A DNA stretch of 64,000 nucleotides from Candidatus Aminicenantes bacterium. GTDB taxonomy: Bacteria; Acidobacteriota; Aminicenantia; Aminicenantales; UBA4085. The DNA lies in NCBI GenBank assembly GCA_026393895.1, contig JAPKZG010000013.1, forward strand, positions 14,556 to 78,555, read 5' to 3'. The notes below the pieces were generated by a model, which had not been told where the DNA came from, did no database searches, and was given only the letters and a program-made list of their open reading frames with translations. This document shows, piece by piece, positions 4,751-23,429 of the stretch (its first letter is position 1; each line of letters starts with the position of its first letter). The position numbers and the translations under genes are program-made.

Positions 4751-6520
4751 ATGCTTCGCTATTTCATCTACTGCCGAAAATCTACAGAAGCCGAAGACCG
4801 ACAGGTCCTTTCGCTTGAATCTCAAATAAACGAACTAAAACGACTCTCCGAGAGATTAAATCTCTCCGTTATTGACATCCTTATTGAATCTCGGTCAGCA
4901 AAGTCGCCAGGCCGACCGCATTTTAACGAAATGCTAAAACGAATTAGTCAGAAGAAGGCCGATGGGATTATCTGTTGGAAACTGGATCGCTTGGCAAGAA
5001 ATCCTATTGACGGAGGCCAGATCAGTTGGATGCTCCAAAAGGGGATTATTAAACATATCCAGACCTTCGATAGAGCCTACTTTCCTGAAGACAATGTCCT
5101 ATTGATGAATGTCGAGTTCGGAATGGCAAACCAATTTATCTTGGATTTGGGAAAGAACGTTAAAAGAGGGCTTAAAACGAAAGCTGAAAAGGGTTGGCTT
5201 CCAACGCTTGCGCCTCTTGGTTATTTAAATGAAAAAACAAGGGAAAAAGGAAAAAAAGAAATTCTTAAAGATCCCGAAAGATTTTCTCTAATAAAAAGGA
5301 TGTGGGACATGATGCTCACAGGAAATTACACCCCGCCAAAGATCGCTTATATAGCAAATAACGACTGGGGATACAAAACTCGGCAAGGAAAGCCATTGGT
5401 AAAAAGCACCATCTACCGGCTCTTTTCCAATCCTTTTTATTCGGGCTGGTTTGAATACCCGAAAGGAAGTGGCAACTGGTTAAAGGGAAGCCACGAACCG
5501 ATGATTACTCAAAAGGAATACGATAAAGTTCAAATACTTCTGGGTAAAAATGGCAAGCCTAGACTCAAAAAACACGAATTTGCGTTTACTGGTCTTATTC
5601 GATGCGGAGAGTGCGGAGCCACGGTCACGGCAGAAGAAAAAAACCAAATCATCTGCTCGAAGTGCAAATACAAATTCTCTTTAAATAACAGATACGAATG
5701 TCCAAAGTGTGCTACTCCTATTGAGATAATGAAGAAACCCACTATCCTCAATTATGTCTATTATCATTGCACAAAGAAAATAATGCCAGATTGCTCCCAG
5801 GGATATATAGAAGTAAATGAACTCGAAAAACAGATTGATTTTTATCTATCAAACATCCATATCTCGGAAGGATTTAAAAATTGGGCTATAAATAATCTAA
5901 AAGAAGAAAACGAGAAAGAAGCTTATTCAAGAGAATCAATCTTTGCTTCTCAAAGAAAAGCTTATGACAACTGCCTTAAGAAACTCGATAATCTTTTCCA
6001 ATTGAAAATCTCTCCTGCAAATACTGATGGGAGTCTTCTATCAGACGAAGAATACGGAAAACAAAAAATCGGATTTTTAAGAGAGAAAACCCGACTTGAA
6101 GAAATTATAAATGATAAAAGCGGCGGTATCGAGAAGTGGCTCCAAAAAGGAGAAAGAACTTTCAACTTCGCACTCAATGCTCGATATTGGTTTGAAAATG
6201 GGACACTCTTGGAGAAGTTTAAGATTTTAAAAGCTCTTGGCTCGAACCTGATTTTAAAAGACAAAAAACTTCATATTGATCTTAAAATACCTTTCACGGC
6301 TATAGGAACGGTCGTGAAGGAGGTTCCTACGGCCAGGTACGGGTTCGAACCTGAAAAATCAGACCAAAATGAAGCTAAACAAAACGATCTCTACTCCAAT
6401 ATTCCCATCGTGCTCCGCGCAATGAAGAAAGTTCGAACTTGGATCATCAGAAATGCTGATGCTTATGACGTTCCTGATTTGGAAAAGCCAACCGAGGATG
6501 CGCTTCCAATCCCCTTCTGA
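4751..6520 (+). CDS. large serine recombinase (resolvase/invertase catalytic domain + recombinase domain + zinc-ribbon)
   Basis: N-terminal 'YCRKSTEAEDRQVLSLESQ' (catalytic Ser region), 'DGIICWKLDRLARN'; Cys-rich zinc ribbon 'CGECGAT...CSKC...CPKC...YYHC'; 589 aa. Confidence 0.85.
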   Translation: MLRYFIYCRKSTEAEDRQVLSLESQINELKRLSERLNLSVIDILIESRSAKSPGRPHFNEMLKRISQKKADGIICWKLDRLARNPIDGGQISWMLQKGIIKHIQTFDRAYFPEDNVLLMNVEFGMANQFILDLGKNVKRGLKTKAEKGWLPTLAPLGYLNEKTREKGKKEILKDPERFSLIKRMWDMMLTGNYTPPKIAYIANNDWGYKTRQGKPLVKSTIYRLFSNPFYSGWFEYPKGSGNWLKGSHEPMITQKEYDKVQILLGKNGKPRLKKHEFAFTGLIRCGECGATVTAEEKNQIICSKCKYKFSLNNRYECPKCATPIEIMKKPTILNYVYYHCTKKIMPDCSQGYIEVNELEKQIDFYLSNIHISEGFKNWAINNLKEENEKEAYSRESIFASQRKAYDNCLKKLDNLFQLKISPANTDGSLLSDEEYGKQKIGFLREKTRLEEIINDKSGGIEKWLQKGERTFNFALNARYWFENGTLLEKFKILKALGSNLILKDKKLHIDLKIPFTAIGTVVKEVPTARYGFEPEKSDQNEAKQNDLYSNIPIVLRAMKKVRTWIIRNADAYDVPDLEKPTEDALPIPF

Positions 6521-6684
6521 GATTTATTCTAGGTCTGAGTTGGCTTTAAAACAAGTAGGGAGAATTTGCCGGATTCGGTAAATTGGGCTTAGCATTTCAA
6601 TTTGTAACCGATGTTTCCAGATGGAAATCAAGGGTTTTGGCGGTGTTTCACTGGTGCGTCTCGGTTTCCTAAAAACTATCCAGC

Positions 6685-8592
6685 CTAATCTTTATTGATC
6701 TGTCTTACAGATTTTACGGCCTTTAAAAGGCTCGCGAAGATATACGAAAGTGGGGCTATAATTTGAGCGATAATCTGAACGACCTCAAAATTATTCTTGG
6801 TCGCAAAAGCGCTTACAAAATTGTCCCAGAGATAAAAAAACAAAATATAATCAACGAGCAATGCTACGGCCGATTTTATAGTAAAGCAAAGCCAAACTAC
6901 TTTTTTCTTGGAGATTTTCTTTTCTGCCCTCTCGTTAGTTAATTGCGATCCGAGATCGGATATCGTTGATTCGTGTTCCCGAATCGTTTGGTCTTTGGCT
7001 ATGTCATCCTGACGTAAAGTCCTTTCAATTTCTACCACTGCATCGTGCATCATAGCGGCGTTATTGGAAAGACGAGCCCTATGGATAATTAAAAGAGTCG
7101 CTTTTATTTTTGTTTCGGGGAGCTCTCTCACTCGTTCCGTTTTTTCAGACAGTAATATTAAGTCACGCTTATCATATTTTTCTTTATTCGTTAAATCGTC
7201 GAAATCAGCGAATATCCTAAAGAGAGGGGCCAGGTCAGATGGATCATATGTAGCACCGCCACCATTCAAGGCAAGAATTTGAACCAACCCGAAAAGGTTT
7301 TGCCATAAGGGGTCGTCTTTTGGGCCGGCTTCTTTAAGGGCTAATGCGGTCATTGTTTGATCAACGGTCAACACGAATGCATTCCTATGTTTATCGCGTG
7401 ATTGAGCTAATTTCCAAAGGCGCGTATCGTGCCTTGCGGGCCCTTCAGATTTTTTTCTACCCGCAAATTCTTCATATATGCCTTGGATCTTATTGAATAA
7501 CACGCTATCTGCTGACGCGTTAAATTCAGTTCCTTCGACATTGATGCCTGTCAACATCTCGATATCAACCTCTCCCAATTTCGATGGAGTTTTTAATCCC
7601 TCGTCAAAAAATCTTTCAACGTCCTGTGTGGTACGGCATCCTGTTCTTAAAAGTCCTTGCGAAAAGATATCTTTCCGGTCCATGCCCTTAAGGGTCTCGA
7701 AGCTAAAGCTTTTCCAAAGATTGATTGAAACCGCGCGCTCTCTCATTCTGACAGTTTCATATTCTTCCGTTGTAAAATCAGCAATATAAATATTTATTCC
7801 AAGCGCCTTAGCTGAACGTCCCAGTGCTTTTAAAGCGTTTTCGGTCGTTTCGTTTTTGTATGCGGTCATTGCAAACAAAACATTCGTATCTATGATGAAA
7901 TCCGCATTTTTGTAACGATCCAATGCTAGCACTTCCGGGCTAATCTCGGCAGAGACGATTTTGGCCGACAGAAGCGAACCCATGAATCTAAACACTCTAT
8001 CTATGTCGTCGCTATTGTCGCTTGTTAAGAATTCTTTGTATCCTTGGAGCAGATCTCCCTCAAATTGATTCATCTTAAAATGTTTTATTAACGGCCGGAT
8101 AACTTCGTCAACGCGAAGCATCGGCATATTTCCATCGTTATATAGCGATAAAAGATTCTGTGATTGCGCGCCGAAATATACCTTGTTCGCTTCATTAAAC
8201 CAATGCCGGAGGGCTTCTCGGTCAATTTTCTTACTAAAATGACGATTTAAAATATCCTCTGTAACTTCTTCCGAATGCTTTAATGTTTTCTCAAGGTTCT
8301 CTTTCTCTTTGGGAACAAGTGACCACAATTCCTCTTTTTTAACGACCATTCGCCTCCCTTGTAAAATCTCTATAGCGGTTTCAAACGATTCAACAGGCAA
8401 GGAAGCTACCTGTATGAGCTCGGCCCCCTTTTTTGCTATTTCATCAATCTGCAGAGAGCGATCGTATTCAATAAAAAGAACCCAAAGAATCACTTTGGCG
8501 TAAGCAATGTCTCTAAGATGTGCTGTTTCTGGCGATAAACATAAAAAGGCATTTAATAATGCTTCCCTGATTTTTTCTAAAGAATTTTCCAT
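6685..8592 (-). CDS. large PIN-domain protein with C-terminal coiled-coil and transmembrane anchor (candidate nuclease/defence protein)
   Basis: 'FIIDTNVLFAMTAY' and 'INIYIADF' PIN acidic motifs; C-terminal hydrophobic segment 'VVWLCFTIKSAVALLVDYILFFYLW'; 635 aa. Confidence 0.55.
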   Translation of the reverse strand: MENSLEKIREALLNAFLCLSPETAHLRDIAYAKVILWVLFIEYDRSLQIDEIAKKGAELIQVASLPVESFETAIEILQGRRMVVKKEELWSLVPKEKENLEKTLKHSEEVTEDILNRHFSKKIDREALRHWFNEANKVYFGAQSQNLLSLYNDGNMPMLRVDEVIRPLIKHFKMNQFEGDLLQGYKEFLTSDNSDDIDRVFRFMGSLLSAKIVSAEISPEVLALDRYKNADFIIDTNVLFAMTAYKNETTENALKALGRSAKALGINIYIADFTTEEYETVRMRERAVSINLWKSFSFETLKGMDRKDIFSQGLLRTGCRTTQDVERFFDEGLKTPSKLGEVDIEMLTGINVEGTEFNASADSVLFNKIQGIYEEFAGRKKSEGPARHDTRLWKLAQSRDKHRNAFVLTVDQTMTALALKEAGPKDDPLWQNLFGLVQILALNGGGATYDPSDLAPLFRIFADFDDLTNKEKYDKRDLILLSEKTERVRELPETKIKATLLIIHRARLSNNAAMMHDAVVEIERTLRQDDIAKDQTIREHESTISDLGSQLTNERAEKKISKKKVVWLCFTIKSAVALLVDYILFFYLWDNFVSAFATKNNFEVVQIIAQIIAPLSYIFASLLKAVKSVRQINKD

Positions 8593-8836
8593 GTATAGAT
8601 TACATCACAATTTTATTTAAAAATAAAGTGGCGAGTGATCCGTCTCGGTAGCTCGATAATGCGCTGACTGTGGCTGCGAATTAAATAATATTCGAAAATG
8701 GATTATGGAAAATTCAGACAATCCCTCTATCCTCTTTTCTAAATCTGAGGATAAAAATCAGCTAAATATAAGGATAACAAGCAATTAATATTTCGTAAAG
8801 ATTAAGAAGGCTTCACTAGGGCTCATTTGGCTTTAA

Positions 8837-8868
8837 TAAAAAGGCACAAACGCGCACGTGCCTTTTAT
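8837..8868 (-). terminator. rho-independent terminator downstream of surface-protein gene
   Basis: AAAAGGCAC-loop-GTGCCTTTT hairpin; T-run on minus strand. Confidence 0.55.
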
Positions 8869-8974
8869 ATTAATATCGGAAAAACATTTATTGTTTGTCA
8901 ATTCTTGAAAATAAATATTCACAATTGTTATTTTCGTAAATAAATTATATCTCACAATAATTTTATCAATAAAA

Positions 8975-11443
8975 TTAAAAGGGTAAAATTTCTTTCCACG
9001 TCGGCATAGGATAATTGGCGTTTAATGATTTGGTTTTAGAACAAGCAAATCCATCACTATCACTAACCTGCAATGTAACATTGTGTTTTCCTGGGGTCAT
9101 AAATCTGCTGGTCGGATTTTCAAGCGTCGAAGAGCCTGGCGTTCCGCCCGTAAATATCCAATTATAACTGTCGCCGGTTGCTGTTGAACAACCACTGCCA
9201 ACAGGATTATCATCAAAACATTTTGAAGCATCGGTAAATTGCACCGTTTCATCAACATTTGGTCTTGCGGGTACGTTTGTAAAATCGGGCATTGGATAAT
9301 GATGAGCAGGAGTGATAAATGAAGAACCATTTACCCAATTAGAGGTCGCGCCGTATTCATCTATTACTCTTGCTCTCCAATAATATTTTGTGTTAAACGA
9401 TAAGTAGCCATCGGTTATAATTGTGGCCAAGGTTACCGTTTGATTATTAGAGCTCGGACTTGGATAATCTACGCTGATTGACCTGTCAATCACTGGCGAT
9501 GAAAAATTGCTATTATTGTCTATTTGAAACAAAAATTGCGATTCATTATCATCATCAGAATCCGAATATGTCCAAGAAAAACTGTAATATGGAGCAGTAA
9601 TACATTGGCTGGATGAAGTAACGCTTAAACCGCTGGCAACAGGAGGATCATTTGTAACCGTAACCGTTTTTTGGCACTGGGTTGGTACTGCGTTGCTTCT
9701 TTCTACAATAACTTTGGCCGTATAATTTCCAGAATTGGCATACACAGAATTACAAGTAGTTGCTGGCGCCGAATAAGGTTCCGTGGTTATACCGTCTTTT
9801 TTATAATTCCAGGGAGGATTAGGAGGAACAGGATTAATAGCAGTACTAGTATCATTACGATTACAATAAAAAGTATAATTAATTGTTCCCGTGGCTGTGC
9901 CGGAAACATCAGCTTTTAATATCACACCACTTAATGGGTGTGAGCCCGAATATGGAGTAGCTGAAAGTGTACAAGAAAGAGTAGGAGCGTAAAGTGTAAC
10001 CGTGTTTGTACAAGTAACTGGATCACTACTCCCCCTGGTTACTTCTGCCTGAACCATATGCGTTCCCACTTCATAATAATTGCATAAATCGGATTTAGTA
10101 TAAGAAGTGGCAGAAGTGGACGGCGACGTAAAATCATAGGGCATAAGACCAGTACAATCCATTTTATAAACAATATTACCCGTGCCTCCAGTTACATTAA
10201 CTGTTAAATCAACATCGCTTAATGCTTCCTTGCCTGAATCTGGATTGGCTGTAATTGTGCAAGAAACCGGAACAGTAATATTTAAAGCATAAACAACGGT
10301 ATCGCTTGCACTAGCGCTAGTTCCTTTTACAGTAATGTTATATGTACCAGGCGAAGCAGAATTGGTAGTGGTAAGGGTAAGTATAGAAGTGCAAGTGGAA
10401 TTTGGAGTGCAACTCGTTGGAGAAAAACTTTTCGTTACTCCCGTTGGAAGGGTGCTGGAAATAGAAAATGATACTGCTTCGGCAGTTCCAGAAGTTTTCG
10501 TTGCTGTTATAGTAGAGGTAGTAGAGTGACCCTTTACCACCGAACCCGAAGATGGATTTGCTGTAAGATTAAAATTAAAAGCAACAGGAACAACAACGGT
10601 CAAATTATATGTAGTGCTGTGAAATGTAGCTCCGCTCGTGCCAGTAACGGTAATAGCATCACTTGTAATTGCCGGAGCAGTAGAATTGGCAGAAAGCGTA
10701 AGAGTAGAAGTGCAGGAAGAAGTACCAGGATTGCAACTAGATGGATTAAAAGAAGCAGTTACTCCTGTTGGTAAACTAGTAGCAGTAAGATTTACTGTTG
10801 CTCCAGTTCCAGCAGTTTTGGTAACGGTTACAGCAGTGGTAACAGAATTACCCCTTGTTACTGAACCAGAAGTTGGATTTGTCGTAATATTAAAATTAAA
10901 AGCAGGAACAGTACTAACCGTGACTGTAGCCGAACAAGTTGCTGATTCTGTGCTATCACAAACATTTTTACAAGTAAGATTATATGTGGTGGTGGATGTG
11001 GGATAAACTGTTTCATTCCCTGTTTTTGTTTTAGTCCCTGACCAGCCACCAGAAGCTGTACAACTGGAACCAATGGAATCGATGTTTGCTGACCAGGTTA
11101 AAACAGATGAATCGCCCAGACTAATAGATGAGGGTGAAGCAGTAATGGAGCAAATAGGGGGAATTGCCGCATAAAAACATTTTTGCACACGAAATCCTGG
11201 TCCGTGGCAATAGGCACATTCATAGTTATCTAAAGGTGGACACTCTTGGCTTGTATCCTTACACTGTACAATACATCCAGCACGAGTATCAGGACAATTA
11301 ACAGTTTTTGGAAGACAACCGGATTTACAACAACCATCGGAACCAAGACACCCTAAATCGGCTCCTCCATATGCGCGAACCAAAATTGGTGTAATTAAAA
11401 TAATAAATAAAAATATTGTAAAAATTAAATATTTGTATTTCAT
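8975..11443 (-). CDS. secreted Cys-rich, Thr/Ser-rich cell-surface protein with tandem Ig-like repeats, FN3-like and C-terminal PKD domain
   Basis: Signal peptide 'MKYKYLIFTIFLFIILITPILVRA'; Cys-rich N-term; ~100-aa internal repeats ('AFNFN.T.NP.SGSV...TLPTGVT.SF.P.SC'); PKD-like 'KHNVTLQVSDSDG' at C-term; 822 aa. Confidence 0.7.
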   Translation of the reverse strand: MKYKYLIFTIFLFIILITPILVRAYGGADLGCLGSDGCCKSGCLPKTVNCPDTRAGCIVQCKDTSQECPPLDNYECAYCHGPGFRVQKCFYAAIPPICSITASPSSISLGDSSVLTWSANIDSIGSSCTASGGWSGTKTKTGNETVYPTSTTTYNLTCKNVCDSTESATCSATVTVSTVPAFNFNITTNPTSGSVTRGNSVTTAVTVTKTAGTGATVNLTATSLPTGVTASFNPSSCNPGTSSCTSTLTLSANSTAPAITSDAITVTGTSGATFHSTTYNLTVVVPVAFNFNLTANPSSGSVVKGHSTTSTITATKTSGTAEAVSFSISSTLPTGVTKSFSPTSCTPNSTCTSILTLTTTNSASPGTYNITVKGTSASASDTVVYALNITVPVSCTITANPDSGKEALSDVDLTVNVTGGTGNIVYKMDCTGLMPYDFTSPSTSATSYTKSDLCNYYEVGTHMVQAEVTRGSSDPVTCTNTVTLYAPTLSCTLSATPYSGSHPLSGVILKADVSGTATGTINYTFYCNRNDTSTAINPVPPNPPWNYKKDGITTEPYSAPATTCNSVYANSGNYTAKVIVERSNAVPTQCQKTVTVTNDPPVASGLSVTSSSQCITAPYYSFSWTYSDSDDDNESQFLFQIDNNSNFSSPVIDRSISVDYPSPSSNNQTVTLATIITDGYLSFNTKYYWRARVIDEYGATSNWVNGSSFITPAHHYPMPDFTNVPARPNVDETVQFTDASKCFDDNPVGSGCSTATGDSYNWIFTGGTPGSSTLENPTSRFMTPGKHNVTLQVSDSDGFACSKTKSLNANYPMPTWKEILPF

Positions 11444-12255: not shown

Positions 12256-13044
12256 CTAATTCCCTTTCCACGTTTTGCAGTTCTCTCGGTACTCACAGTC
12301 CTTACACATGAAACTGGTTCTCGGGAAAAAGACGCGCTGCTGGATTCCTTTGAGAATCTGTCCGGCCAGGAGGTAGAGCCGTTGGTAGTCGTCTTTGTCT
12401 CGCATTGTATCCATCGTGATCAGCTTAGGCTTCTTGGATTTGACGAAATTAACGATCTTTAAAGACTTAGCCGGCTTGTGGCTGATCCTTTCGAAAGCAT
12501 AGCTGTAGATTGTCAGTTGGAGATGGTTTTCGACTTCCTGAGGGTCCATGGTCTGGGCCGAGGTCTTGAATTCCGTGATCGAGTCATCCTCCTCGATTAG
12601 ATCAATCACCCCTTCCAGCTCGATGGCGGCGCTATGGCCGTTCTCGGAATTGAAGAGCGGGACAGAAAACGGAATTTCCGTACCCTTGACTTTCTTTTTC
12701 GGAAGCTCGAAATACTGAGCCAGCATCTCCTTTCCCAGGACGACAAGCTTCATCTCTTCTTCCCCGGCTTTGAAGCGAATCTCATTTTCCGTTTTCAGAC
12801 TGTACCAGTCCGCATCGAAAATCTTATGCAGGCGGTCGATCGTCACTCCGTTTCCGTTCATCATCTGCTTGTGATACCAGGAGAGAGCAGAATGGATCGC
12901 GCTGCCAAAAGCCAGTCCTGAAGATTTGAAGCGTTTCGGGATCTCATCAATGTACTGGAACTTGTACTTCAGACCGCAAAGCAGATAAAGATTGATTTGA
13001 GAGCTAGAAAGGTATGGCGTCATGGCTTTCGCCTTTGGCTTCAT
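12256..13044 (-). CDS. PD-(D/E)xK nuclease, Cas4/RecB-like with C-terminal Cys cluster
   Basis: 'IDLIEEDDSITEFKTSAQ' (D...ExK), N-terminal Cys and C-terminal 'CKDCEYRENC' (Cas4-like Fe-S ligands); 262 aa (start may be Met8 at ~13023). Confidence 0.6.
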   Translation of the reverse strand: MKPKAKAMTPYLSSSQINLYLLCGLKYKFQYIDEIPKRFKSSGLAFGSAIHSALSWYHKQMMNGNGVTIDRLHKIFDADWYSLKTENEIRFKAGEEEMKLVVLGKEMLAQYFELPKKKVKGTEIPFSVPLFNSENGHSAAIELEGVIDLIEEDDSITEFKTSAQTMDPQEVENHLQLTIYSYAFERISHKPAKSLKIVNFVKSKKPKLITMDTMRDKDDYQRLYLLAGQILKGIQQRVFFPRTSFMCKDCEYRENCKTWKGN

Positions 13045-13378
13045 CGAGAAGCCGTTCGATCATCCGCGAAGCTTCAAGCTTCGTGACCTCTTTCAGAGAA
13101 TCGACCTGGAAAAGCTCTTTGAGTTTGGCGTATCCTTGGTCGTTCTCGTAGCCTTTCTCAGCCATAATCCTGAAGAGATACCGCTTCTGGGCGTCAGTCA
13201 TCGGAGGATTCTCTTTTGACGGGCTGCTGTTTTGGGGCTTGGCCTGGCCAGCGTCCGGCTTCGGGCTTTCTTTTGCCTTCGGTTGATCCTCTAAGGCTAT
13301 CTCTTCGTAGAGATAGAGAACGAGGATAACCTTTCCGTCCACAGTTCTGACTTCCATCCGTCGTGCCTTGTCTTTCAT
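13004..13378 (-). CDS. hypothetical protein
   Basis: 124-aa ORF co-oriented with nuclease gene; no motif recognised. Confidence 0.35.
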   Translation of the reverse strand: MKDKARRMEVRTVDGKVILVLYLYEEIALEDQPKAKESPKPDAGQAKPQNSSPSKENPPMTDAQKRYLFRIMAEKGYENDQGYAKLKELFQVDSLKEVTKLEASRMIERLLDEAKGESHDAIPF

Positions 13379-13516
13379 TTTTTTTCTCCTTTGAATTTTA
13401 AAGATCTACTTTCAGCTTAGCGCACTGATAGAGACAAACAAGACGGGAGAAAATGCTGAAATAGCGAATTATTCCCGTCTTTTATTGGATTTATTGGGGA
13501 CTTATGATGAAGATAT

Positions 13517-14836
13517 ATGGAGAATTCTCAGAAAATTAATCGCATCACTCCGTTTGCCTTAACCGATTACCGCGACATCAGAAAGCTATTCGGCATTAAA
13601 CAAAAGAACCGGCGCGGCCATATGTACATCATCGGTAAGACCGGTACCGGAAAATCTACCTTAATCGAGAATATGGCGATCTCGGATATCAAGAACGGCT
13701 ATGGCGTTGCATTGATCGACCCTCACGGCGACATGGCCGAAGAAATTCTGGATTACATACCCAAGAAAAGAATCAAAGATATCATCTATTTCAATCCCGC
13801 AGATTTGGATAATCCCATAGCGTTCAACCCATTAGAAAAAGTACCAAGAGATTTTCATCATCTAATCGCTTCGGGAATTATCTCGACTTTCAAAAAGATT
13901 TGGTCAGAATCCTGGGGGCCGAGATTGGAGCATATTCTAAGTCACTCGCTTCTTTCGCTTCTCGAATATCCGAATAGCACACTTCTGGATTTGCCAAAAC
14001 TACTTACGAATAACGATTTCCGAAAGAACGTTCTAACTTACATCACTCATCCCCAGGTCAGGGAATTTTGGCTCTCGGAATTCGAGAAATATTCAGCTTG
14101 GCTCAAGTCAGAAGCGATTTCTCCGATTCTCAATAAGATCGGCCAATTCTTAATCAGTATTCCGCTAAGAAATATTGTCGGCCAGAAAGAAAATACTTTT
14201 AATGTTCGGCAGGCAATGGATGAAGGCAAGATCCTCATTGTTAACTTGGCTAAAGGAAAGATCGGAGAAGACAACTGCTCTCTGCTGGGCGCGTTGATTG
14301 TTACTAAGATTCAACTAGCCGCCCTGAGCCGTACGGATCAGCCTGAAGAGCAAAGAAAGCCGTTCTATTTCTATGTGGATGAAATTCACAACTTCATCAC
14401 CTTATCCTTCGCTGACATCTTGTCCGAATCTCGCAAGTACGGATTAAACCTTATTCTCGCCCATCAATATATCGAACAATTGGATGAAAGAATCCGGGCC
14501 GCAATTTTCGGGAATGTCGGGACAATCATTTCCTTCAGGATCGGCGCTGAAGACGCGAAGTATTTAGCCCAGGAATTTTCGCCGGTATTCAATGAAGAAG
14601 ATTTAATCAAGCTCCCGAATTTCCATATCTACCTCAAACTCATGATCGACGGAGTCACCTCGCAGCCTTTCAGCGCAATCACACTTAAACTAAGGGAAAT
14701 GAACACATCGCACAAAAAAGAAATTATCGAGTTTTCAAGGAAGCAATATACAAGGCCGAAAAGTGTTGTAGAACAACAAATGCTTTCTCAGCCATATCAT
14801 CTTCATAATTCAAATGGTCAACAATTATCTTTCTAA
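13517..14836 (+). CDS. VirD4/TraG/TraD-like P-loop NTPase (type IV secretion coupling-protein family)
   Basis: Walker A 'GKTGTGKS', Walker B 'FYVDEIHNF', 'AHQYIEQLD'; paralog of 1..2148 product; 439 aa. Confidence 0.7.
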   Translation: MENSQKINRITPFALTDYRDIRKLFGIKQKNRRGHMYIIGKTGTGKSTLIENMAISDIKNGYGVALIDPHGDMAEEILDYIPKKRIKDIIYFNPADLDNPIAFNPLEKVPRDFHHLIASGIISTFKKIWSESWGPRLEHILSHSLLSLLEYPNSTLLDLPKLLTNNDFRKNVLTYITHPQVREFWLSEFEKYSAWLKSEAISPILNKIGQFLISIPLRNIVGQKENTFNVRQAMDEGKILIVNLAKGKIGEDNCSLLGALIVTKIQLAALSRTDQPEEQRKPFYFYVDEIHNFITLSFADILSESRKYGLNLILAHQYIEQLDERIRAAIFGNVGTIISFRIGAEDAKYLAQEFSPVFNEEDLIKLPNFHIYLKLMIDGVTSQPFSAITLKLREMNTSHKKEIIEFSRKQYTRPKSVVEQQMLSQPYHLHNSNGQQLSF

Positions 14837-15323
14837 AAATAGATCATTTCTTCTGCCCAATGAACAAATTGTCTTCCAAGCCAATCCGCATTGGCTGTTC
14901 CTTCTCGTCTCCATTGGCCAGATATTTCTGTTTTTCTTTTTATACTATTTTTTCGCCTGCCCGTTTTTGGAATTTATAGTAGGTTCTCTCGAGCACTACT
15001 GCTATATCGCTGCTTTGTTTGTTCTTATTTTTATCAGTCTCATCTTTTATCTGGATTGGAAATTTAATCGACTTTATTTAACGAATTTCCGGCTCATAAA
15101 AGAACGTGGCATTATCGGAAAGCGATATATGTCTGTTCGATTACCGAATATTGAAGATATGACCTGTACCTTCGGAATTTTGGGAAGAATCCTGGGCTAT
15201 GGCGATTTAGCAATTGAATCAGCCGGAACCTATGGACAGATGAATTTTAAAGGAATTCCAAAACCGAGAAAAATAAAAACGCTCATTGAAAAATGGCGAT
15301 ATTATTCAGGCGTTGGGCACTAA
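14814..15323 (+). CDS. bacterial PH-domain membrane protein (bPH_2/YdbT/DUF304-like)
   Basis: Two TM helices then 'LYLTNFRLIKERGIIGKRYMSVRLPNIEDM...ILGRILGYGDLAIESAG' matching bPH_2 consensus. Confidence 0.7.
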   Translation: MVNNYLSKNRSFLLPNEQIVFQANPHWLFLLVSIGQIFLFFFLYYFFACPFLEFIVGSLEHYCYIAALFVLIFISLIFYLDWKFNRLYLTNFRLIKERGIIGKRYMSVRLPNIEDMTCTFGILGRILGYGDLAIESAGTYGQMNFKGIPKPRKIKTLIEKWRYYSGVGH

Positions 15324-15377
15324 AGCACCTTAACACTCTTTTATTTATATATATCCTCTCTGCCCCGCTCTTTCTCT

Positions 15378-16394
15378 ATGTTCTTTAACAATCTACCAAT
15401 GGAGGTCCTCATGAAATTAGAAAGTCTGATTCAGGAACTGGAAACCCAGAAGCCCTTGAAATGGGACAAAAAACTGAATTCTTCGCAGATCAAGATGGTT
15501 CTGGACGAAAACAGGCCGAGATTCCAAATTAAGGCCGACAAGCTCTTTCCGATCAATGAATCCTGCCACAACCAGATCGCGGACAAGCTTGAAATCCCCT
15601 TGAAGTACTATCACCGGATGGAGGAAGAAACGCCGGACCTTCTGGCCCGGAACGTGAATACCTGGCTCGAAAGAAGCAAAAAAGATTTCTTCATCCGTGG
15701 CCTGGGAGATTCCATCCGCGCTTTTCTCAGCGATCGCTACCGGGTTATCGACCACTTGGACGTTCTGCTCTGCGCTTTGAATGAACTGCAAGCCCATTCA
15801 GCAGAAATCGAAGACTGCTTCCTTTCCGGGATCGAGATGAATATCAAGGTCAAAAGCCAGAGCCTGAGGGACTTCGTCCGTCACAAGGACGATTTGATCA
15901 CCGGCGGCCTGTTTCTTACCAATTCCGAGACCGGTCATAAAGCCCTTAGGGTTGAACCCCGGCTTTTCCGGGTCAAATGCTCCAACGGCCTGATCGTCGA
16001 GGAACTGGTAACGCGGGAGATCCATATCGGAAACGGTGACGAGCTGGCCGATGAGATGGTTTATCTCTCGCTCCGGCGTTCGATTCGGGAGCTTTTCAAA
16101 GGATTCGGAGGGATCGTTGAGGTTCTACGGGAATCCACAGAAATCAAGGTCAGAAATCCACAGAAAGTCATCAGCAACGTGGCCGATCACTACAAGCTCA
16201 GCGAAATCCAGAAGAACAACATCCTTATGGCCTTCGGAGCGGAGCCGGAATTCGACAAGTACGGGATCGCCAATGCTCTGACGTTCGCGGCCCAGAAAGA
16301 AGAATCCTGGGAAAAGTCCGTGGAAATGGAGCGGATCGGGGGGCGTCTCATCACCCTGCCGGTCGAGGAATTCAAGGCCCTGGATGAGCCGTAG
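15378..16394 (+). CDS. conserved hypothetical protein of plasmid/phage type (DUF932-like assignment tentative)
   Basis: 338-aa ORF in operon with ATPase and bPH_2 genes; family assignment from memory only. Confidence 0.4.
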   Translation: MFFNNLPMEVLMKLESLIQELETQKPLKWDKKLNSSQIKMVLDENRPRFQIKADKLFPINESCHNQIADKLEIPLKYYHRMEEETPDLLARNVNTWLERSKKDFFIRGLGDSIRAFLSDRYRVIDHLDVLLCALNELQAHSAEIEDCFLSGIEMNIKVKSQSLRDFVRHKDDLITGGLFLTNSETGHKALRVEPRLFRVKCSNGLIVEELVTREIHIGNGDELADEMVYLSLRRSIRELFKGFGGIVEVLRESTEIKVRNPQKVISNVADHYKLSEIQKNNILMAFGAEPEFDKYGIANALTFAAQKEESWEKSVEMERIGGRLITLPVEEFKALDEP

Positions 16395-16500: not shown

Positions 16501-19311
16501 TTATATTTTTGTTAAGTTGTATTTATTTCTCCGATGTTCAAAAGCTACTTCACCACCATCTAATATGTCGCAAGCATGTTCACGAATGCCTTGCGCTTTC
16601 AACGTGTCTTCACATTTTTCGTCTCTTTCTTTTGTATTTTCGATGCTGCCAGTTAAATAATTAAATTGTTTGCCATCGGTGTTTTTTCTATCGCTACCAT
16701 ATCTATTAGCTACAATAATTTGCTCAGAATCGGCTTCTATAACAAGATTCGCATTATGGCTAACCATAATGAGCTGGCGTTCCCTTTTCTTCTTTTTTAA
16801 AAACGGCACTATCTCCTTAGTAATAGACCTACTATCTAAATTATCTTCCGGTTGATCAATAAAGATTGGCCAAGTATCTTCCGATTCAGCCAAAATGAGT
16901 TTTAAAAGGAATAGCGCGCGTCGTCCGGGTGTCATAGTCGTTTCCGAAAATCCTCCTATTCGATCTCCTTCCATTTCAGCATTAAATAGGATATTTTCCG
17001 TTAGCATTAATATTTCCTTTACAACTTCGTTTTTTTCATTACCAATATTTATTTTCTGTTTCCCATAATAAATTGCTTGTATAAATTTTGCTGGTTGATT
17101 TCTAGTTAATTCAATATTTAGTTCGTTCTTTTCAACAAAATCTGTTTTATCTCTCAAATTCACTTTCTTCGCAACTTTTTCTATATCATTTAGATTTAAT
17201 CCATATTCAATACCGAATCTAATATCTTTAATTATGCTTTGATTCGTAGTTTCTAAGAATTCTTTTAGCTTAATTAGAGTAGATTGCTTCTCTTTTATTT
17301 CTGCTTTGATGGACTTTTCATACTCTTCCATTTTCTTTTGATTTTTTATCTTTTTCTTTTCAGTATCATCTATATATTTTATAGTCTCTTTGTATTCAAT
17401 AAGCTTCTTTATAAGCCCTTCCAGTTCAACATTTTTTTGATATCTTTCTAATAGGTCTTTATGGTCTTCTTTATTCTTTGATATTTTTTCCTCAATATCC
17501 TTTTTCTCTTTTTCAGCAGATTTTTTGTATTCAATAACTTGTTGGTTAGCTTTTTCTATGAGCTTATCTCTAATTTCTATTAATTCTTTTTTGATCGCCT
17601 CATGTAATTTATCAGGCAAATTTTCTAGATCGGGAGTAAATTTCCAGTTTAATCCGCTAAAGTAATGAATTTCTTCTGATACGTGCGCAAGTTGAGAAAT
17701 ATCTTTTTTAATTTGTTTAATTTCTATTTCATACTCAGATATTTCAGCGCTAATATCCTGATACTGTTTTACGTCATCTCCGCTTAGCTGATATTTTCTT
17801 TTGAGGGTCTCTATCTTTGATTCGATCTCTTGTTTTTCTTTCTTAATAATTTCCTTATTCCCAATATTTCTTAAATCTTCTTCAATTGATACGATTGAAT
17901 CAGATGATCTGAGCCAGTTTTCAACTTTCTCTAAAATATGTTCATTACAATTATCTAACTGGCTTTTTGCTTGCTTGTATCTTATTTCAAATTCAGGAAA
18001 ACGTTTAAACAATACTGGCTCAATTTTCTTTTTTATTTCTTCGGAATCTTTACTTTTATTAAATAGATAATTTTGAGGTATATAAACAATCTTTCCAAGA
18101 CTTTCGTCATTAGATAAGCCATTACCCCATTCAATTGTATGATCTATCTTTATTTTGTCCCAATGATATTCTTCGCCTTCTCCTGGGCCGTCAATTAATT
18201 TTTCGACTAATTCTTTATCAATAGCGTGTGCTATATAAGCAAGTAAAGCAGACTTACCGGCTGACCTGCTTCCTATAATTGAACAAAGGTTTTTATTGAA
18301 TACAATCTCATCCGGAAAATCTTTACTATTATTAAATTTTATTTTCTTTATAACCTGGTATTCGTTCTTTTTATCAGGTTCAATAGGACCAATCCAAACA
18401 CGTTCCCCGGGTTCCGGTTCATAAATTATTTGTTTTAAACCTTCAAAAGTGGGATCTGCTTTTATCCAAGTTACATCTTTAATAATTATTTCCTTGCCAT
18501 TTTTGTCTTTTCTTAAAGCTCTTTTGCCCAAATATTTATCTAGATCATCAAAAGAATGTATATCGCTACCTGCAATGACTGGCTTTTTACCAATTGTCAA
18601 CTCGTTATCCTCAAGTCTTTTAGTATTTAGAAAGTATTCCTGGTTTTGGGTGCCTCCGAAGAATCCATCGCTGAATTTGTCAATCTCGTCACTGATACTT
18701 TCCTTTCTTTTTACACCTCGCTCCGGTCGAATACCATCAGAATTAGCAGCTGTAAAAATAAGGAAGTGATTGCGTTGTATAGCTTTTTTACCAAAAGTTT
18801 CTTCAAAAGCACTTTTGATAGCTTGCCTCGTAACTGTCGCTGATTCATAATCAAGTTGGTTTTTTAATTCCGAACATTTTATTGGCCTTTCATCCTTTCC
18901 TGTTTTGATAACTTTTAATTCGCTCAAATATTTATCTACTTTATCCAGAGTTGATGGATTAAATATTAAATGGACATTAACTTCTTCTGGTATTTTATTT
19001 ACCGATTCATTAAGTTTTAATTCGATATTTAAAAAAAATTTCTTTTTCGATTCGGGATATTTACTTTGATATTTCTCGATAAAAGTCTTATAACAGTCCG
19101 CAGAGAAATAATCAGTTATACCAAAAACCTCGACATCGGATTGTTCTATCTTATCGCAGAATACATCACAGGCGTCTTTATTATCACTAAATTTATATCC
19201 ATCATTAAGTTTTGTTCCTGGTATATGAATATGCAAATCCCACTTTCTCCATTCAGATCCTCTCGGCCAAGGAGTTATTTGCTTAAGGATATCGCTATTG
19301 TTTGTTCCCAT
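16501..19311 (-). CDS. PHP-domain phosphoesterase fused to Rad50/SbcC/RecF-like coiled-coil ABC ATPase (TrlF-like; candidate defence ATPase)
   Basis: N-term 'WDLHIHIPGT...FGITDY' PHP His motifs; Walker A 'GSRSAGKSALL'; Lys/Glu-rich coiled coil; C-term Walker B/D-loop 'IFIDQPEDNLD' and H-loop 'LIMVSHNANL'; 936 aa. Confidence 0.7.
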   Translation of the reverse strand: MGTNNSDILKQITPWPRGSEWRKWDLHIHIPGTKLNDGYKFSDNKDACDVFCDKIEQSDVEVFGITDYFSADCYKTFIEKYQSKYPESKKKFFLNIELKLNESVNKIPEEVNVHLIFNPSTLDKVDKYLSELKVIKTGKDERPIKCSELKNQLDYESATVTRQAIKSAFEETFGKKAIQRNHFLIFTAANSDGIRPERGVKRKESISDEIDKFSDGFFGGTQNQEYFLNTKRLEDNELTIGKKPVIAGSDIHSFDDLDKYLGKRALRKDKNGKEIIIKDVTWIKADPTFEGLKQIIYEPEPGERVWIGPIEPDKKNEYQVIKKIKFNNSKDFPDEIVFNKNLCSIIGSRSAGKSALLAYIAHAIDKELVEKLIDGPGEGEEYHWDKIKIDHTIEWGNGLSNDESLGKIVYIPQNYLFNKSKDSEEIKKKIEPVLFKRFPEFEIRYKQAKSQLDNCNEHILEKVENWLRSSDSIVSIEEDLRNIGNKEIIKKEKQEIESKIETLKRKYQLSGDDVKQYQDISAEISEYEIEIKQIKKDISQLAHVSEEIHYFSGLNWKFTPDLENLPDKLHEAIKKELIEIRDKLIEKANQQVIEYKKSAEKEKKDIEEKISKNKEDHKDLLERYQKNVELEGLIKKLIEYKETIKYIDDTEKKKIKNQKKMEEYEKSIKAEIKEKQSTLIKLKEFLETTNQSIIKDIRFGIEYGLNLNDIEKVAKKVNLRDKTDFVEKNELNIELTRNQPAKFIQAIYYGKQKINIGNEKNEVVKEILMLTENILFNAEMEGDRIGGFSETTMTPGRRALFLLKLILAESEDTWPIFIDQPEDNLDSRSITKEIVPFLKKKKRERQLIMVSHNANLVIEADSEQIIVANRYGSDRKNTDGKQFNYLTGSIENTKERDEKCEDTLKAQGIREHACDILDGGEVAFEHRRNKYNLTKI

Positions 19312-20462: not shown

Positions 20463-21071
20463 ATGTATAAAGAACTCCATCCGATTCAAAAGAAGCTGTT
20501 AGATATTTTGAAAAACAATATCGAAGATCCCCTGACGATCCGAGAGATACAGGGCATGCTGGACGCTTCATCTACGAGCGTAGTTGCTTATCATATCGCT
20601 CAACTGGAAAAAAGAGGATTCTTGAAAAAGAATCCGCTGAATCCAAAGGATTATCACATATTGAAGGATGGGCCGGAAAAGCAAATCGTCTATCTAAACC
20701 TATACGGCCTGGCTCACTGCGGAGCTAGAGGATCGATTTTAGAGGGCGACCCTATTGACAGGATTCCTCTATCGGCCAGGCTGATTTCCTTTCCAGCAAG
20801 CGAAGCATTCATGGTGAAGGCTAAAGGCGATTCCATGGAGCCTCTAATCCATGAAGGAGATTTGATCATAGCCAGAAAATGCAATTCGGCTGAAAACGGT
20901 AGAATCGTTGTCTGCATTAACAACGGAGAGGCGCTGATAAAGAAAATTAAAAGAGAAAGCAAAAATACGATCCTCATTTCAGAAAACTCCAAACATCCTC
21001 CCTTTCTGGCCTCCAAAAAGTTCAGGATTGAAGGCGAAGTCAGAGGCATTATAACCAGCAGAGTCGTCTAA
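20463..21071 (+). CDS. LexA/CI-like repressor (winged HTH + S24 peptidase domain)
   Basis: C-terminal 'AKGDSMEP' (Ser nucleophile) and 'LIKKIKRE' (Lys) S24 motifs; 202 aa; stop overlaps vsr start (TAATG). Confidence 0.8.
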   Translation: MYKELHPIQKKLLDILKNNIEDPLTIREIQGMLDASSTSVVAYHIAQLEKRGFLKKNPLNPKDYHILKDGPEKQIVYLNLYGLAHCGARGSILEGDPIDRIPLSARLISFPASEAFMVKAKGDSMEPLIHEGDLIIARKCNSAENGRIVVCINNGEALIKKIKRESKNTILISENSKHPPFLASKKFRIEGEVRGIITSRVV

Positions 21072-21472
21072 TGGATAATCTGACAAAAGAACAGCGAACA
21101 CTTTGCATGTCTCGAATAAGAAGCAAGAACACAAAGCCTGAGCTGGTCGTCCGCAAGGTGCTTTCAAAAATAGGGATTCGATACCGCCTCCATAATTCGA
21201 AACTGCCTGGAAGGCCCGATATAACGATTTCTAAAGCCAAAACGATTATTTTCATCAACGGCTGCTTCTGGCATCAGCATAAGAACTGCAAAAAGCAAGC
21301 TTTGCCCGCGTCCAACAAAGATTACTGGGAGAAGAAACTGAAAAGAAATATTAAAAAACAGAAACAGGATGTTCGGGCTCTAAGAAAGCTCGGCTGGAAA
21401 GTCCATAAGATATGGGAATGCCAGACGGCAGACGAAACAAAATTAACTAAAAGAGTTATGCAAATACTATGA
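21071..21472 (+). CDS. vsr: very-short-patch repair endonuclease
   Basis: 'TKPELVVRKVL...GIRYRLH...LPGRPDI....IFINGCFWHQH' canonical Vsr motifs; 133 aa. Confidence 0.85.
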   Translation: MDNLTKEQRTLCMSRIRSKNTKPELVVRKVLSKIGIRYRLHNSKLPGRPDITISKAKTIIFINGCFWHQHKNCKKQALPASNKDYWEKKLKRNIKKQKQDVRALRKLGWKVHKIWECQTADETKLTKRVMQIL

Positions 21473-22593
21473 AACAGGAAATAATATTCAAATTGGCTGA
21501 GTTATTCTGCGGACCGGGCGGCCTGTCTTTTGGGGCGATGTCCGCTTTTGTCACCGATTCAAAGGGCAAAACATATAAAGTCAAGCCCGTCTGGGCAAAT
21601 GATATTGACCCTGACGCCTGCAAAACCTTTGCCCGCAATATCCACGGCGGGAATGCCAAAAGGGTTATCTGCGCTCCAATCGAATCCGTTGATTTTGATG
21701 ATATCCCTGCTTTTGACGCCTTGGCGTTTGGCTTTCCCTGCAACGATTTCAGCGTTGTCGGAGAGCAAAAAGGTTTTCACGGTAAATACGGGCCTTTGTA
21801 TACTTATGGCGCAAAAGCAATAGACCTTTGCAATCCAAAATGGTTTATTGCTGAAAACGTTGGCGGGCTGCAGAGCGCCAACAACGGATCTGCATTTTCA
21901 AAAATTCTCCATGATCTCGAACACGCGGGCAAAGGGTATCGCCTGATTGCGCATTTATACAAATTTGAGGAATACGGCGTTCCTCAAACGCGGCACAGGA
22001 TCGTGATAATTGGAATTCGGAAAGATTTAAATCTGGAATTCAAAGTCCCCGCTCCGACTACGGTCAATAAATACGTTTCCGCTAGATCGGCCATTGAAAA
22101 CCCTCCCATTCCAGCTTTTACGCCGAACCAGGAGATGACTGCTCAATCCAATCGTGTCGTTGAAAGACTTAAGCATATACCTCCGGGCGAGAATGCCTGG
22201 TTCAGTGGCCTGCCCGAGCATTTGCAGTTGAATGTGAAACAAGCTAGATTAAGCCAGATATACAAAAGGCTAGACCCAGACAAGCCGTCCTATACCATTA
22301 CAGGCAGCGGAGGGGGCGGAACTCATGGATATCATTGGAGTGAAAACAGGGCTCTTACCAATCGAGAACGGGCCAGAATTCAGACCTTTCCCGATGATTT
22401 TGTATTTGAAGGCTCCAAAGAATCCGTCAGGAAGCAAATCGGAATGGCCGTCCCGCCGCAGGGTGCAAGGGTGATCGTTGAAGCGGTTCTGAAAACGTTT
22501 GCCCGCATTCCCTACAAATGGGTTTCACCCAAGCTAATCAACAGTGATTCGGCTAACAGCGGCCAGAAGTTACTTTTTGATGCGCGGGCTTAG
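21469..22593 (+). CDS. dcm: DNA (cytosine-5)-methyltransferase
   Basis: Motif I 'FCGPGGLSFG', motif IV 'GFPCNDFS', motif VI 'ENVGGL'; 374 aa; ATGA overlap with vsr. Confidence 0.85.
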   Translation: MKQEIIFKLAELFCGPGGLSFGAMSAFVTDSKGKTYKVKPVWANDIDPDACKTFARNIHGGNAKRVICAPIESVDFDDIPAFDALAFGFPCNDFSVVGEQKGFHGKYGPLYTYGAKAIDLCNPKWFIAENVGGLQSANNGSAFSKILHDLEHAGKGYRLIAHLYKFEEYGVPQTRHRIVIIGIRKDLNLEFKVPAPTTVNKYVSARSAIENPPIPAFTPNQEMTAQSNRVVERLKHIPPGENAWFSGLPEHLQLNVKQARLSQIYKRLDPDKPSYTITGSGGGGTHGYHWSENRALTNRERARIQTFPDDFVFEGSKESVRKQIGMAVPPQGARVIVEAVLKTFARIPYKWVSPKLINSDSANSGQKLLFDARA

Positions 22594-23429
22594 AGCAGTC
22601 CTAAAAGCTCCTGCCAGCTTTCCTTGTTTTTATGCAATTGTCCTGATTTCTTAACGAAGCGCACCCCGTCAAATTCCTGGCCTGGAATGCTGTTCACTTT
22701 CTCCAATTCATTGATACGGCACCAGCCCGCGATTTCGCAGAACATATTGGAGAAATCAGGCATTTTATCCTTGTAGCTTGGAAAGTGCTGTTCGCCTTTG
22801 ATGACTTGTATTACACGATCTTTTGTCAACCTCAGCAAATGATCGTCGGGGATGTCAGGGCGGCAAAAGATATAAAACTCAGACCTTCGCTCTTTTATAT
22901 TTATTTCGTTCTCTCCCAAAACAAGATACGCGCTCTTCGGCTTTGATGATTTAATCCCTATTCCTATCTTCGGATCGCGCTTTTCTCCTTTTTCAATGAC
23001 ACCGATAATATCTTGAGGAACGATATTATCATGGATTCCAAAATCCAATTCGACGCTGACATCAAATTCTTTTTCGAAGAATTTTTTAACTGCGACTTCC
23101 GCCAGCTGGCCTTTCACCCAGTTCGTTATTTTTTGTCCGAATTCTCTCTGCCTTGCCGTCCCCCAATCAGATAAGACGTACCCTCTGAAATGCTGAGCCA
23201 GGGCGAAATCCAAACAAAGGGAGTAATCCTCGAACGTCAGCTCTACAGTCCTCCACTTAAAAGCTACGGCCCATTCTGCTAGCTCGTCCTTAATGAAATA
23301 ATACCGGCCCCGGCCGCTTTTCCTATCCATGCACTTGAATTCATCTGCATTTTGAAAATAGTTGGCGAAAGTCTTCTCGTCCAATGACAAATATTCGGCA
23401 GCTTCTTTTTTGGACAAGGGTTTGTTCAT
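22590..23429 (-). CDS. putative type II restriction endonuclease (cognate of adjacent m5C MTase)
   Basis: Convergent with MTase, immediately downstream of C-protein gene; possible PD-(D/E)xK 'VELDFGIHD...IGIGIKSSK'; assignment by context. Confidence 0.4.
   Translation of the reverse strand: MNKPLSKKEAAEYLSLDEKTFANYFQNADEFKCMDRKSGRGRYYFIKDELAEWAVAFKWRTVELTFEDYSLCLDFALAQHFRGYVLSDWGTARQREFGQKITNWVKGQLAEVAVKKFFEKEFDVSVELDFGIHDNIVPQDIIGVIEKGEKRDPKIGIGIKSSKPKSAYLVLGENEINIKERRSEFYIFCRPDIPDDHLLRLTKDRVIQVIKGEQHFPSYKDKMPDFSNMFCEIAGWCRINELEKVNSIPGQEFDGVRFVKKSGQLHKNKESWQELLGLL

Follow-up and report, generated by a model that had tools for sequence, protein, structure and literature searches.

The window, a 64,000-nt stretch of contig JAPKZG010000013.1 from a Candidatus Aminicenantes bacterium, carries at positions 6685-8592 a gene (hereafter the PIN gene) for a protein with a PIN-like nuclease domain. 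The open reading frame (ORF) is single and uninterrupted, runs over 635 codons from an ATG start, and its product is identical to the NCBI hypothetical protein NTW38_01625 of a Candidatus Aminicenantes metagenome-assembled genome (MAG). An earlier note on this DNA had delimited the ORF correctly and left its strand, the minus strand, unsaid. M1 is invariant in the alignment of homologues (A1), and the N-terminus of the protein aligns with theirs. The PIN gene is convergent with and adjacent to a large serine recombinase gene on the plus strand, and upstream of it a minus-strand gene (8975-11443) encodes a PKD-domain protein with a signal peptide. Both neighbours were thus as the earlier note described them, except that the second, called a giant surface protein there, has a size of only 822 aa. 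The placement of the gene inside an island was also borne out by the low GC content, ~0.40 in comparison with ~0.60 around.

The assignment of the central domain relies on fold, conservation and profile matches. The full-length AlphaFold2 (AF2) model had a predicted local distance difference test (pLDDT) score of 79.5, and for the central domain a three-layer α/β/α fold with a parallel β-sheet is predicted, as in solved PIN domains. The two strings from which the PIN core had been called were recovered, FIIDTNVLF spanning residues 232-240 and IYIADF residues 268-273. In the alignment of 130 members, with a mean identity to the query of ~20%, conservation is complete at W131, D235, T236, H388 and D389 and reaches at least 90% at N237, E277, Y278, K381, D411 and D477; N237 is invariant too in a 72-member subset. 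The putative catalytic residues are D235 (with T236 and N237), E277, D389 (with H388) and D411. In the AF2 secondary structure, D235 comes after strand 1, and the helix that succeeds strand 2 contains E277; D389 belongs to the helix running into the strand 405-409, and D411 is located after that strand. Sequence and model together give good support to the acidic residues standing in the canonical PIN order, with the full set of four kept.

Curated hidden Markov models (HMMs) alone were unconvincing. The best Pfam matches of the query, PIN_8 (PF18476), PIN_12 and DUF4935 (PF16289), all stayed below the gathering thresholds, and those to PIN_8 and PIN_12 covered only residues 232-301, corresponding to the first ~60 profile positions. 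Nothing was matched when NCBIfam and PHROGs were searched with the query. A PIN region below the HMM threshold is what the earlier note had named as a refutation of the call; this applies to the query, but family members matched the models of the PIN clan separately: PIN_3 in 16 of 72 (best E 3.5e-5), PIN_8 in seven (4.6e-4) and PIN_12 in six (2.6e-4). These independent matches, the conservation and the fold settle the matter, and the PIN domain belongs to the VapC structural group. The comparison of the whole 635-aa model with the PDB by Foldseek gave no match at E≤0.001. All that came up were winged helix-turn-helix (wHTH) regulators, spurious wHTH-plus-Rossmann O-methyltransferases and weak matches to AF1683 and FEN1. 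As the whole-model comparison was uninformative, the central domain was modelled alone. Profile searches of the PDB sequences with the alignments A1 and A4 returned nothing meaningful.

The C-terminus forms a membrane anchor, as had been proposed, with two transmembrane (TM) segments instead of the single hydrophobic helix. Hydropathy analysis revealed TM-grade segments at residues 568-586 and 602-620 (Kyte-Doolittle means of 1.94 over 19 residues for TM1 and 1.66-1.85 for TM2) and no N-terminal hydrophobic segment in the query, and two C-terminal hydrophobic segments were found in 127 of the 130 members. Across the family the inter-TM loop has a median length of 11 aa and a net charge of -0.45, and the mean net charge amounts to +3.2 before TM1 and +1.9 in the tail after TM2. 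Under the positive-inside rule, the basic flanks and the acidic loop indicate an N-in/C-in hairpin, so sequence and model give good support to a protein predicted to be anchored to the cytoplasmic membrane with all its soluble domains inside. The stalk in front of TM1 is part of a continuous helix (residues 512-597, pLDDT 81-86), and the last helix spans residues 601-634. The earlier note had assigned a coiled coil to the protein. The hydrophobic occupancy of heptad positions a and d in residues 512-567 was 0.50 vs. a background of 0.34, and because this signal is weak we dropped the claim; a coiled coil in the stalk is possible.

The description of a large multidomain PIN protein proved accurate, apart from the N-terminal winged-helix domain, which had been overlooked. 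In the AF2 model it consists of helices 21-41, 49-60 and 67-79 and strands 83-86 and 89-92 (pLDDT 74-87). Its local Foldseek matches were IclR, MarR and PadR, with probabilities of 0.90-0.98 and E-values of only 0.6-0.9, and some family members match the TBPIP, ANAPC2 or MCM winged-helix models of Pfam. The all-helical domain between the wHTH and PIN domains had no match in Pfam, NCBIfam or the PDB sequences; F119, F140, L181 and F188 in it are at least 90% conserved among the 130 members.

The protein represents a sizeable family. A word-indexed search yielded 14 full-length relatives of the query, essentially the same 14 proteins were obtained when it was repeated with a 72-sequence profile, and an exhaustive profile search returned 1001 matches at E≤1e-3, of which 605 reached E≤1e-10 and 254 reached E≤1e-30, these 254 having the same length in common. 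Nearly all of the top 150 profile matches are 630-690 aa long and were aligned end-to-end. The ratio of nonsynonymous to synonymous substitution rates (dN/dS) was 0.27 against a 90% homologue and 0.09 against a 69% homologue, with dS saturated in the latter comparison; the ORF is under purifying selection. A chance ORF is excluded by the 14 full-length homologues, the 254 strongest profile matches and this selection. All relatives examined were metagenomic singletons, none with a name or a Pfam annotation, and those in reference genomes all came from MAGs of Patescibacteria, also known as the candidate phyla radiation (CPR). Most of the carriers are Patescibacteria/CPR-like low-GC genomes, and most of the 39 loci surveyed below have a GC content of 0.30-0.45. 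In one locus (L039, 7188-10662) the homologue is cut into ORFs of 252 aa and 457 aa by an opposite-strand transposase gene of a Mutator-family insertion sequence (IS), and the inactivated copy lies downstream of two methylase-related genes of >1000 aa.

The comparison of the window with the locus of a 90% homologue (L041) demonstrated how the gene travels. The DNA similarity was confined to 6558-8675, with 92.5% identity, that is, to the ORF with 83 nt upstream and 127 nt downstream; therefore, the gene moves as a self-contained ~2.1 kb cassette. The rest of the neighbourhood of this homologue (L041, L042) is wholly different and includes HEPN_LA2681, DUF2188 and DUF4238 genes, of which HEPN_LA2681 and DUF4238 lie upstream of the PIN gene in L041.

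Both edges of the cassette carry candidate expression signals. The generic scan for sigma-70 promoters and terminators gave no excess over shuffled sequences, and the statements made here on promoters and terminators rest on conservation across the loci and on RNA folding. The 5' flank is kept even in the 69% homologue. In the alignment with L041 and L003 it contains a conserved 'TTTTAAATAAAATTGTGATGTAATCTATACATGG' block, and L003 has TATAAT (~9990-10000) at the position of the TGTAAT of the window. Judged from its sequence, the 5' flank would act as a promoter. No Shine-Dalgarno sequence was found in it, and with the hexamer so close to the ATG the transcript of the cassette may therefore be leaderless. 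In the 3' flank the inverted repeat occurs once in the window and in none of 100 shuffles; one mismatch weakens its stem in the window, where the fold had a z-score of -0.8, compared with -2.4 and -4.3 for the two copies in L041. The repeat is part of an element of ~27-38 nt at the 3' edge of the cassette (6558-6584 in the window), composed of a 9-bp inverted repeat, AATTTGCCG-AAWC-CGGCAAATT, followed by CTCCC. The copies in L041 lie at 5955-5972 and 9305-9322; L041 and L042 thus have an additional copy 3.3 kb upstream of the one at the cassette edge, downstream of a 307-aa gene ending at 5856. The element is probably a shared terminator; it could also be a recombination site or a repetitive extragenic palindromic (REP)-like site. 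On the upstream side, a further hairpin at 8833-8873 (-15.6 kcal/mol, z-score -3.4, with none of 200 shuffles as stable) is predicted to separate the PKD transcript from the PIN gene.

The context of the PIN gene was surveyed in 39 non-redundant loci, whose neighbouring genes were clustered by local BLASTP. No neighbour family accompanied the gene consistently across these loci, and in the window no credible small ORF flanks it, only unconserved ORFs of 25-40 aa being present. A conserved downstream partner was considered and rejected, since no relationship could be detected between the ~340-aa genes at this place in L001 and L013. The gene is therefore not part of a VapBC-like two-gene module, and its stand-alone nature, asserted in the earlier note, was confirmed. 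The same note would have taken homologues always encoded with an antitoxin as the mark of a plain toxin-antitoxin (TA) module; no such association was seen in the 39 loci or in the flanks of the window.

Mobile and defence genes recur around the homologues. An integrase is present in 14 of the 39 loci, with a large serine recombinase family in nine and a tyrosine integrase family in five, and it directly adjoins the PIN gene in five loci (the window, L005, L015, L020 and L031). L015 is a prophage arm with the order tail fibre, holin, M23 endolysin (peptidase), PIN gene and integrase; positions next to an integrase or after the lysis genes are typical for moron genes. In L001, L012 and L013 the gene that directly precedes the PIN gene, in the same orientation, encodes a LexA/S24-type repressor. 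Restriction-modification (R-M) genes lie directly upstream in L008 (a methyltransferase and an EcoO109I-family endonuclease, type II) and L034 (a complete type I hsdR-M-S set), a methyltransferase gene lies upstream in L022, and a SLFN_AlbA_2 gene downstream overlaps the PIN gene in L013. The gene thus moves on its own, as a one-gene cassette, from one integrative element, prophage end or R-M/defence island to another. Three of the loci (L001, L010 and L012, and partly L003) have upstream, on one strand, genes for a serine recombinase (~427 aa), a terminase-large-subunit-like protein (~488 aa) and a ParB/N6_N4 DNA methyltransferase (~424-445 aa); on these Patescibacteria-like contigs a divergent LexA/S24 repressor operon and then the PIN gene follow. 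This conserved backbone may define a family of CPR elements that are small, integrative and phage-like.

Table 1. Coordinates in the window of the PIN gene, the domains of its product, its conserved flanks and adjoining features.
Feature	Positions	Strand	Remarks
Large serine recombinase (integrase), 589 aa, context	4751-6520	+	Pfam Resolvase, Recombinase, Zn_ribbon_recom
Conserved 3' flank	6558-6684	-	terminator-like inverted repeat 6563-6584, AATTTACCG-AATC-CGGCAAATT
PIN gene ORF, 635 aa	6685-8592	-	wHTH / helical domain / PIN / long helix / 2-TM hairpin
TM segment 2, residues ~602-625	6718-6789	-	short basic tail after
TM segment 1, residues ~568-590	6823-6891	-	basic cluster EKKISKKK precedes
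Long highly charged helix (stalk), residues ~512-567	6892-7059	-	leads directly into TM1
Helical subdomain, residues ~451-508	7069-7242	-	packs after the PIN core; D477-L478 motif ('DKRDL')
PIN-like nuclease domain, residues ~225-445	7258-7920	-	~90-residue helical insert after strand 2
All-helical domain, residues ~94-214	7951-8313	-	from AF2; includes invariant W131
wHTH, residues ~30-92	8317-8505	-	three helices and a β-hairpin wing
Conserved 5' flank	8593-8675	-	-10-like hexamer TGTAAT (8599-8604), 6 nt before ATG
Terminator-like hairpin and U-run	8833-8873	-	downstream of the PKD gene

The adjoining recombinase, of which homologues stand near the PIN gene in nine loci, matches a PHROG integrase at 1.4e-58. 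In the first ~26 kb of the window the GC content is ~0.34-0.47, and in the remainder 0.56-0.64. The genes of this low-GC part encode HTH regulators and a RuvC-like protein. Grouped at 12256-16394 are those for a PD-(D/E)XK/Cas4-like exonuclease, a TrwB/TraG-like coupling ATPase (13517-14836, plus strand) and bPH_2 and DUF932 proteins, with a weak RecT-like ORF among them. The island resembles an integrative mobilisable element more than a tailed prophage. On the minus strand, 16501-19311 encodes an AAA_21 protein (ABC/OLD-type ATPase) of 936 aa, which partially matches the PADLOC 'Ppl' defence model (residues 793-893, E 1e-16); its gene may be a second defence gene of the island. A LexA/S24-like repressor gene (20463-21071, plus strand) lies immediately upstream of the gene for a Vsr very-short-patch endonuclease (21071-21472, plus strand), which is followed by a Dcm C5-cytosine methylase gene (21469-22593, plus strand) and a convergent gene (22590-23429, minus strand) whose 279-aa product matches a model of type II restriction enzymes. 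The genes at 21071-23429 resemble a full type II R-M set, repair partner included. The secreted 822-aa PKD-domain protein next to the PIN gene is Cys-rich in its N-terminal part, continues with repeats of Ig-like/NEW3-like Thr/Ser-rich modules and has its PKD domain at the C-terminus. Other large surface-repeat proteins are encoded near the homologues in L001 (958 aa, Flg_new/Lcl_C) and L006 (1060 aa, β-helix/fn3), and no mutual homology among the three was detected by BLAST.

At its right end the island carries a second large serine recombinase gene (24785-26287, plus strand), which overlaps by 80 nt the end of an ORF (26208-27308, minus strand) for a ComM/YifB-type Mg-chelatase-like ATPase. 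This ORF is truncated within the AAA+ domain: of the 207 positions of the Pfam profile, 162 is the last one matched, and at this very point the GC content jumps from ~0.47 to ~0.58. Hence, comM of an Aminicenantes genome with 60% GC appears to be the gene into which the low-GC island was inserted. When the 3' remainder of comM was sought at the left end of the window, the GC content was still island-like there, which places the left end of the island outside the window. The GC content of ~0.40 within an Aminicenantes contig of ~0.60, together with the finding of the closest genome relatives of the PIN gene (L008-L012) all in Patescibacteria/CPR MAGs, suggests that the cassette or the whole island was transferred across phyla.

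We rate the PIN gene as a putative conflict gene of the PIN-nuclease kind, new in being membrane-tethered, fused to a wHTH and antitoxin-free. For its role, we consider the chances about even that the stand-alone membrane-tethered PIN nuclease gives mobile elements a single-gene means of immunity or exclusion. In this reading, a metal-dependent endonuclease that inhibits itself would be positioned on the cytoplasmic side of the membrane; by analogy with the PIN domains of the VapC group and Rrp44, it would most likely be a ribonuclease (RNase). Infection, or incoming foreign nucleic acid sensed via the wHTH/helical module or the membrane hairpin, would be the trigger that releases the PIN activity. 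The released nuclease might then cut the invading nucleic acid where it enters, or RNA of the cell and the phage, and so abort the infection. The abortive-infection or sensor-nuclease role put forward in the earlier note agrees with the contexts observed (integrative elements, a prophage arm, and R-M, HEPN and DUF4238 islands), and it is drawn from association.

Several points weigh against this interpretation. The defence role rests on genomic association, the neighbour counts have no background rate behind them, and addiction modules and element-maintenance genes are mobile-element cargo too. Five loci (L004, L009, L014, L024 and L033) have no obvious mobile or defence genes. No homologue was found by a pattern scan of IMG/VR or by tblastn in sequenced phages and plasmids, so the link to prophages rests on a few metagenomic contigs. 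None of the PADLOC-DB 2.0 families was matched at E≤0.1, and a literature search found no experiment on the family. The substrate, the trigger and the autoinhibition are entirely inferred, and the catalytic residues were mapped from sequence and secondary-structure position, not from a three-dimensional superposition. The Pfam scores of the query were 17.7 bits for PIN_8 against a cutoff of 26.1 and 17.5 against 32 for PIN_12.

A different role as cargo is that of a self-contained addiction toxin, in which the wHTH/helical part is a fused VapB-like antitoxin and autoregulator masking the PIN domain. After loss of the element, the N-terminal part would be degraded or cleaved and the nuclease would kill the segregants, stabilising the island. 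VapB antitoxins carry DNA-binding domains. The VapC-group fold, the wHTH fused in front of it, the consistent occurrence on mobile elements and the lack of a separate antitoxin gene in the loci and window flanks surveyed are all in agreement with this scheme. However, one polypeptide hardly gives the differential stability needed for post-segregational killing, and the membrane hairpin of 127 out of 130 members has no role in it. In addition, the cassette stands beside R-M systems without integrases in L008 and L034, moving independently of any one element. We regard addiction as unlikely.

The positions of the gene next to integrases in five loci, directly downstream of the LexA/S24-type repressors in three and after the lysis genes in L015, as well as the type IV coupling protein (T4CP)-like, DUF932 and recombination genes of the window island, could also be read as signs of a component of the element's life cycle. 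The protein would then be either a membrane-tethered wHTH regulator of lysogeny or excision, or a nuclease that processes the DNA or RNA of the element in induction, packaging or transfer. Against it stand the wholly different backbones (serine-integrase elements, a tyrosine-integrase tailed prophage, R-M islands and the HEPN/DUF4238 island). A core gene should co-vary with its element, whereas the 90% copy has only the ORF and its flanks in common with the window, and no PHROG family was matched. This possibility seemed to us quite unlikely.

We considered it improbable that the protein is a membrane-bound regulator or sensor with a non-catalytic PIN-like domain, serving in ligand or RNA binding or as a scaffold, as in SMG5 or Utp23. 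Inactive PIN domains typically lose their acidic residues, and the number of conserved acidic residues is listed for each family by Matelska et al. (2017, PMC5499597). In contrast, at the four acidic positions and in the DTN and HD motifs studied here, conservation is complete or reaches at least 90% in ~130 very divergent sequences. A housekeeping membrane-associated ribonuclease resembling RNase Y or YacL (COG4956), present in variable regions by chance, is highly improbable given the sporadic distribution with only metagenomic singletons in the clusters examined, the lack of conserved synteny, the foreign-GC island around the window copy, the IS-disrupted copy of L039, the C-terminal position of the anchor and the unmatched TRAM domain.

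The immunity or exclusion factor proposed here was compared with known PIN proteins and exclusion systems. VapC toxins of type II TA systems have ~130 aa and an upstream antitoxin gene, whereas the 635-aa protein is ~5 times larger, none of the 39 loci contains a cognate antitoxin gene, and a terminator lies upstream of the PIN gene. In addition to the VapC-type core, it has the wHTH, the helical domains, the ~90-residue insert in the PIN domain and the two-segment C-terminal anchor. The earlier note was right that this size and this membrane tethering are unlike ordinary VapC toxins. The families PIN_8, PIN_12 and DUF4935 belong to the VapC group, have a long helical insert after strand S2, are usually monocistronic and are of unknown function (Matelska et al., 2017, PMC5499597). 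The insert and the monocistronic habit are common to the protein studied here, but for DUF4935 proteins, which have ~350 aa, neither a wHTH nor a membrane anchor is described (PMC5499597), whereas both are present here. The PIN.COG4956/YacL proteins (structure 3ix7, TTHA0540) combine four N-terminal TM helices with PIN and TRAM domains and have no wHTH. The protein studied here differs by its C-terminal hairpin, the lack of a TRAM match and its cassette-like distribution, in contrast to the wide conservation of COG4956 among bacteria.

The closest functional analogue of the proposed mechanism is DS-3, likened by description and not by sequence. DS-3 is a validated one-protein PIN defence system, antitoxin-free and dependent on its catalytic residues, which has been proposed to be auto-inhibited until infection (DefensePredictor, PMC13092281). 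No membrane anchor or wHTH is mentioned for it (PMC13092281), whereas the protein described here has both. The position downstream of LexA/CI-type S24 repressors in L001, L012 and L013 resembles that of rexA and rexB in the cI-rexA-rexB arrangement of phage lambda, which includes a membrane component too. The lambda rexAB genes are prophage exclusion or abortive-infection genes co-expressed with the repressor and form a two-protein ion-channel system, not a nuclease; they have no sequence or fold relationship to the PIN gene. We found no paper describing a wHTH-PIN-membrane architecture.

Bacteria of the CPR/Patescibacteria are reported to have few recognised defence systems. A more specific version of the immunity reading, which we put forward tentatively as a rather unlikely one, assumes immunity at the point of entry: the nuclease held by the hairpin, with the wHTH recognising injected or transferred nucleic acid, would destroy the invader at the portal and spare the cell. 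Such a gene would have spread as a promoter-to-terminator cassette, perhaps with a leaderless transcript, among the phages and islands of CPR/Patescibacteria, and it appears to have crossed between phyla as well, in this case into an Aminicenantes genome.

Single-gene candidate defence systems are now numerous. If the PIN gene encodes an immunity factor, a one-gene, antitoxin-free, membrane-tethered PIN nuclease would join the catalogue of defence systems. Its carrier lineages, Patescibacteria/CPR and other uncultivated phyla, are those in which phage defence is poorly known and largely missed by the current defence databases. The architecture raises the question of why a PIN nuclease with a DNA-binding-type domain should be tethered to the membrane, and the size of the cassette, ~2.1 kb, makes the function directly testable. 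If the gene served addiction or maintenance instead, it would still represent a sizeable unannotated family, with at least 254 clusters at 50% identity, deserving a family definition.

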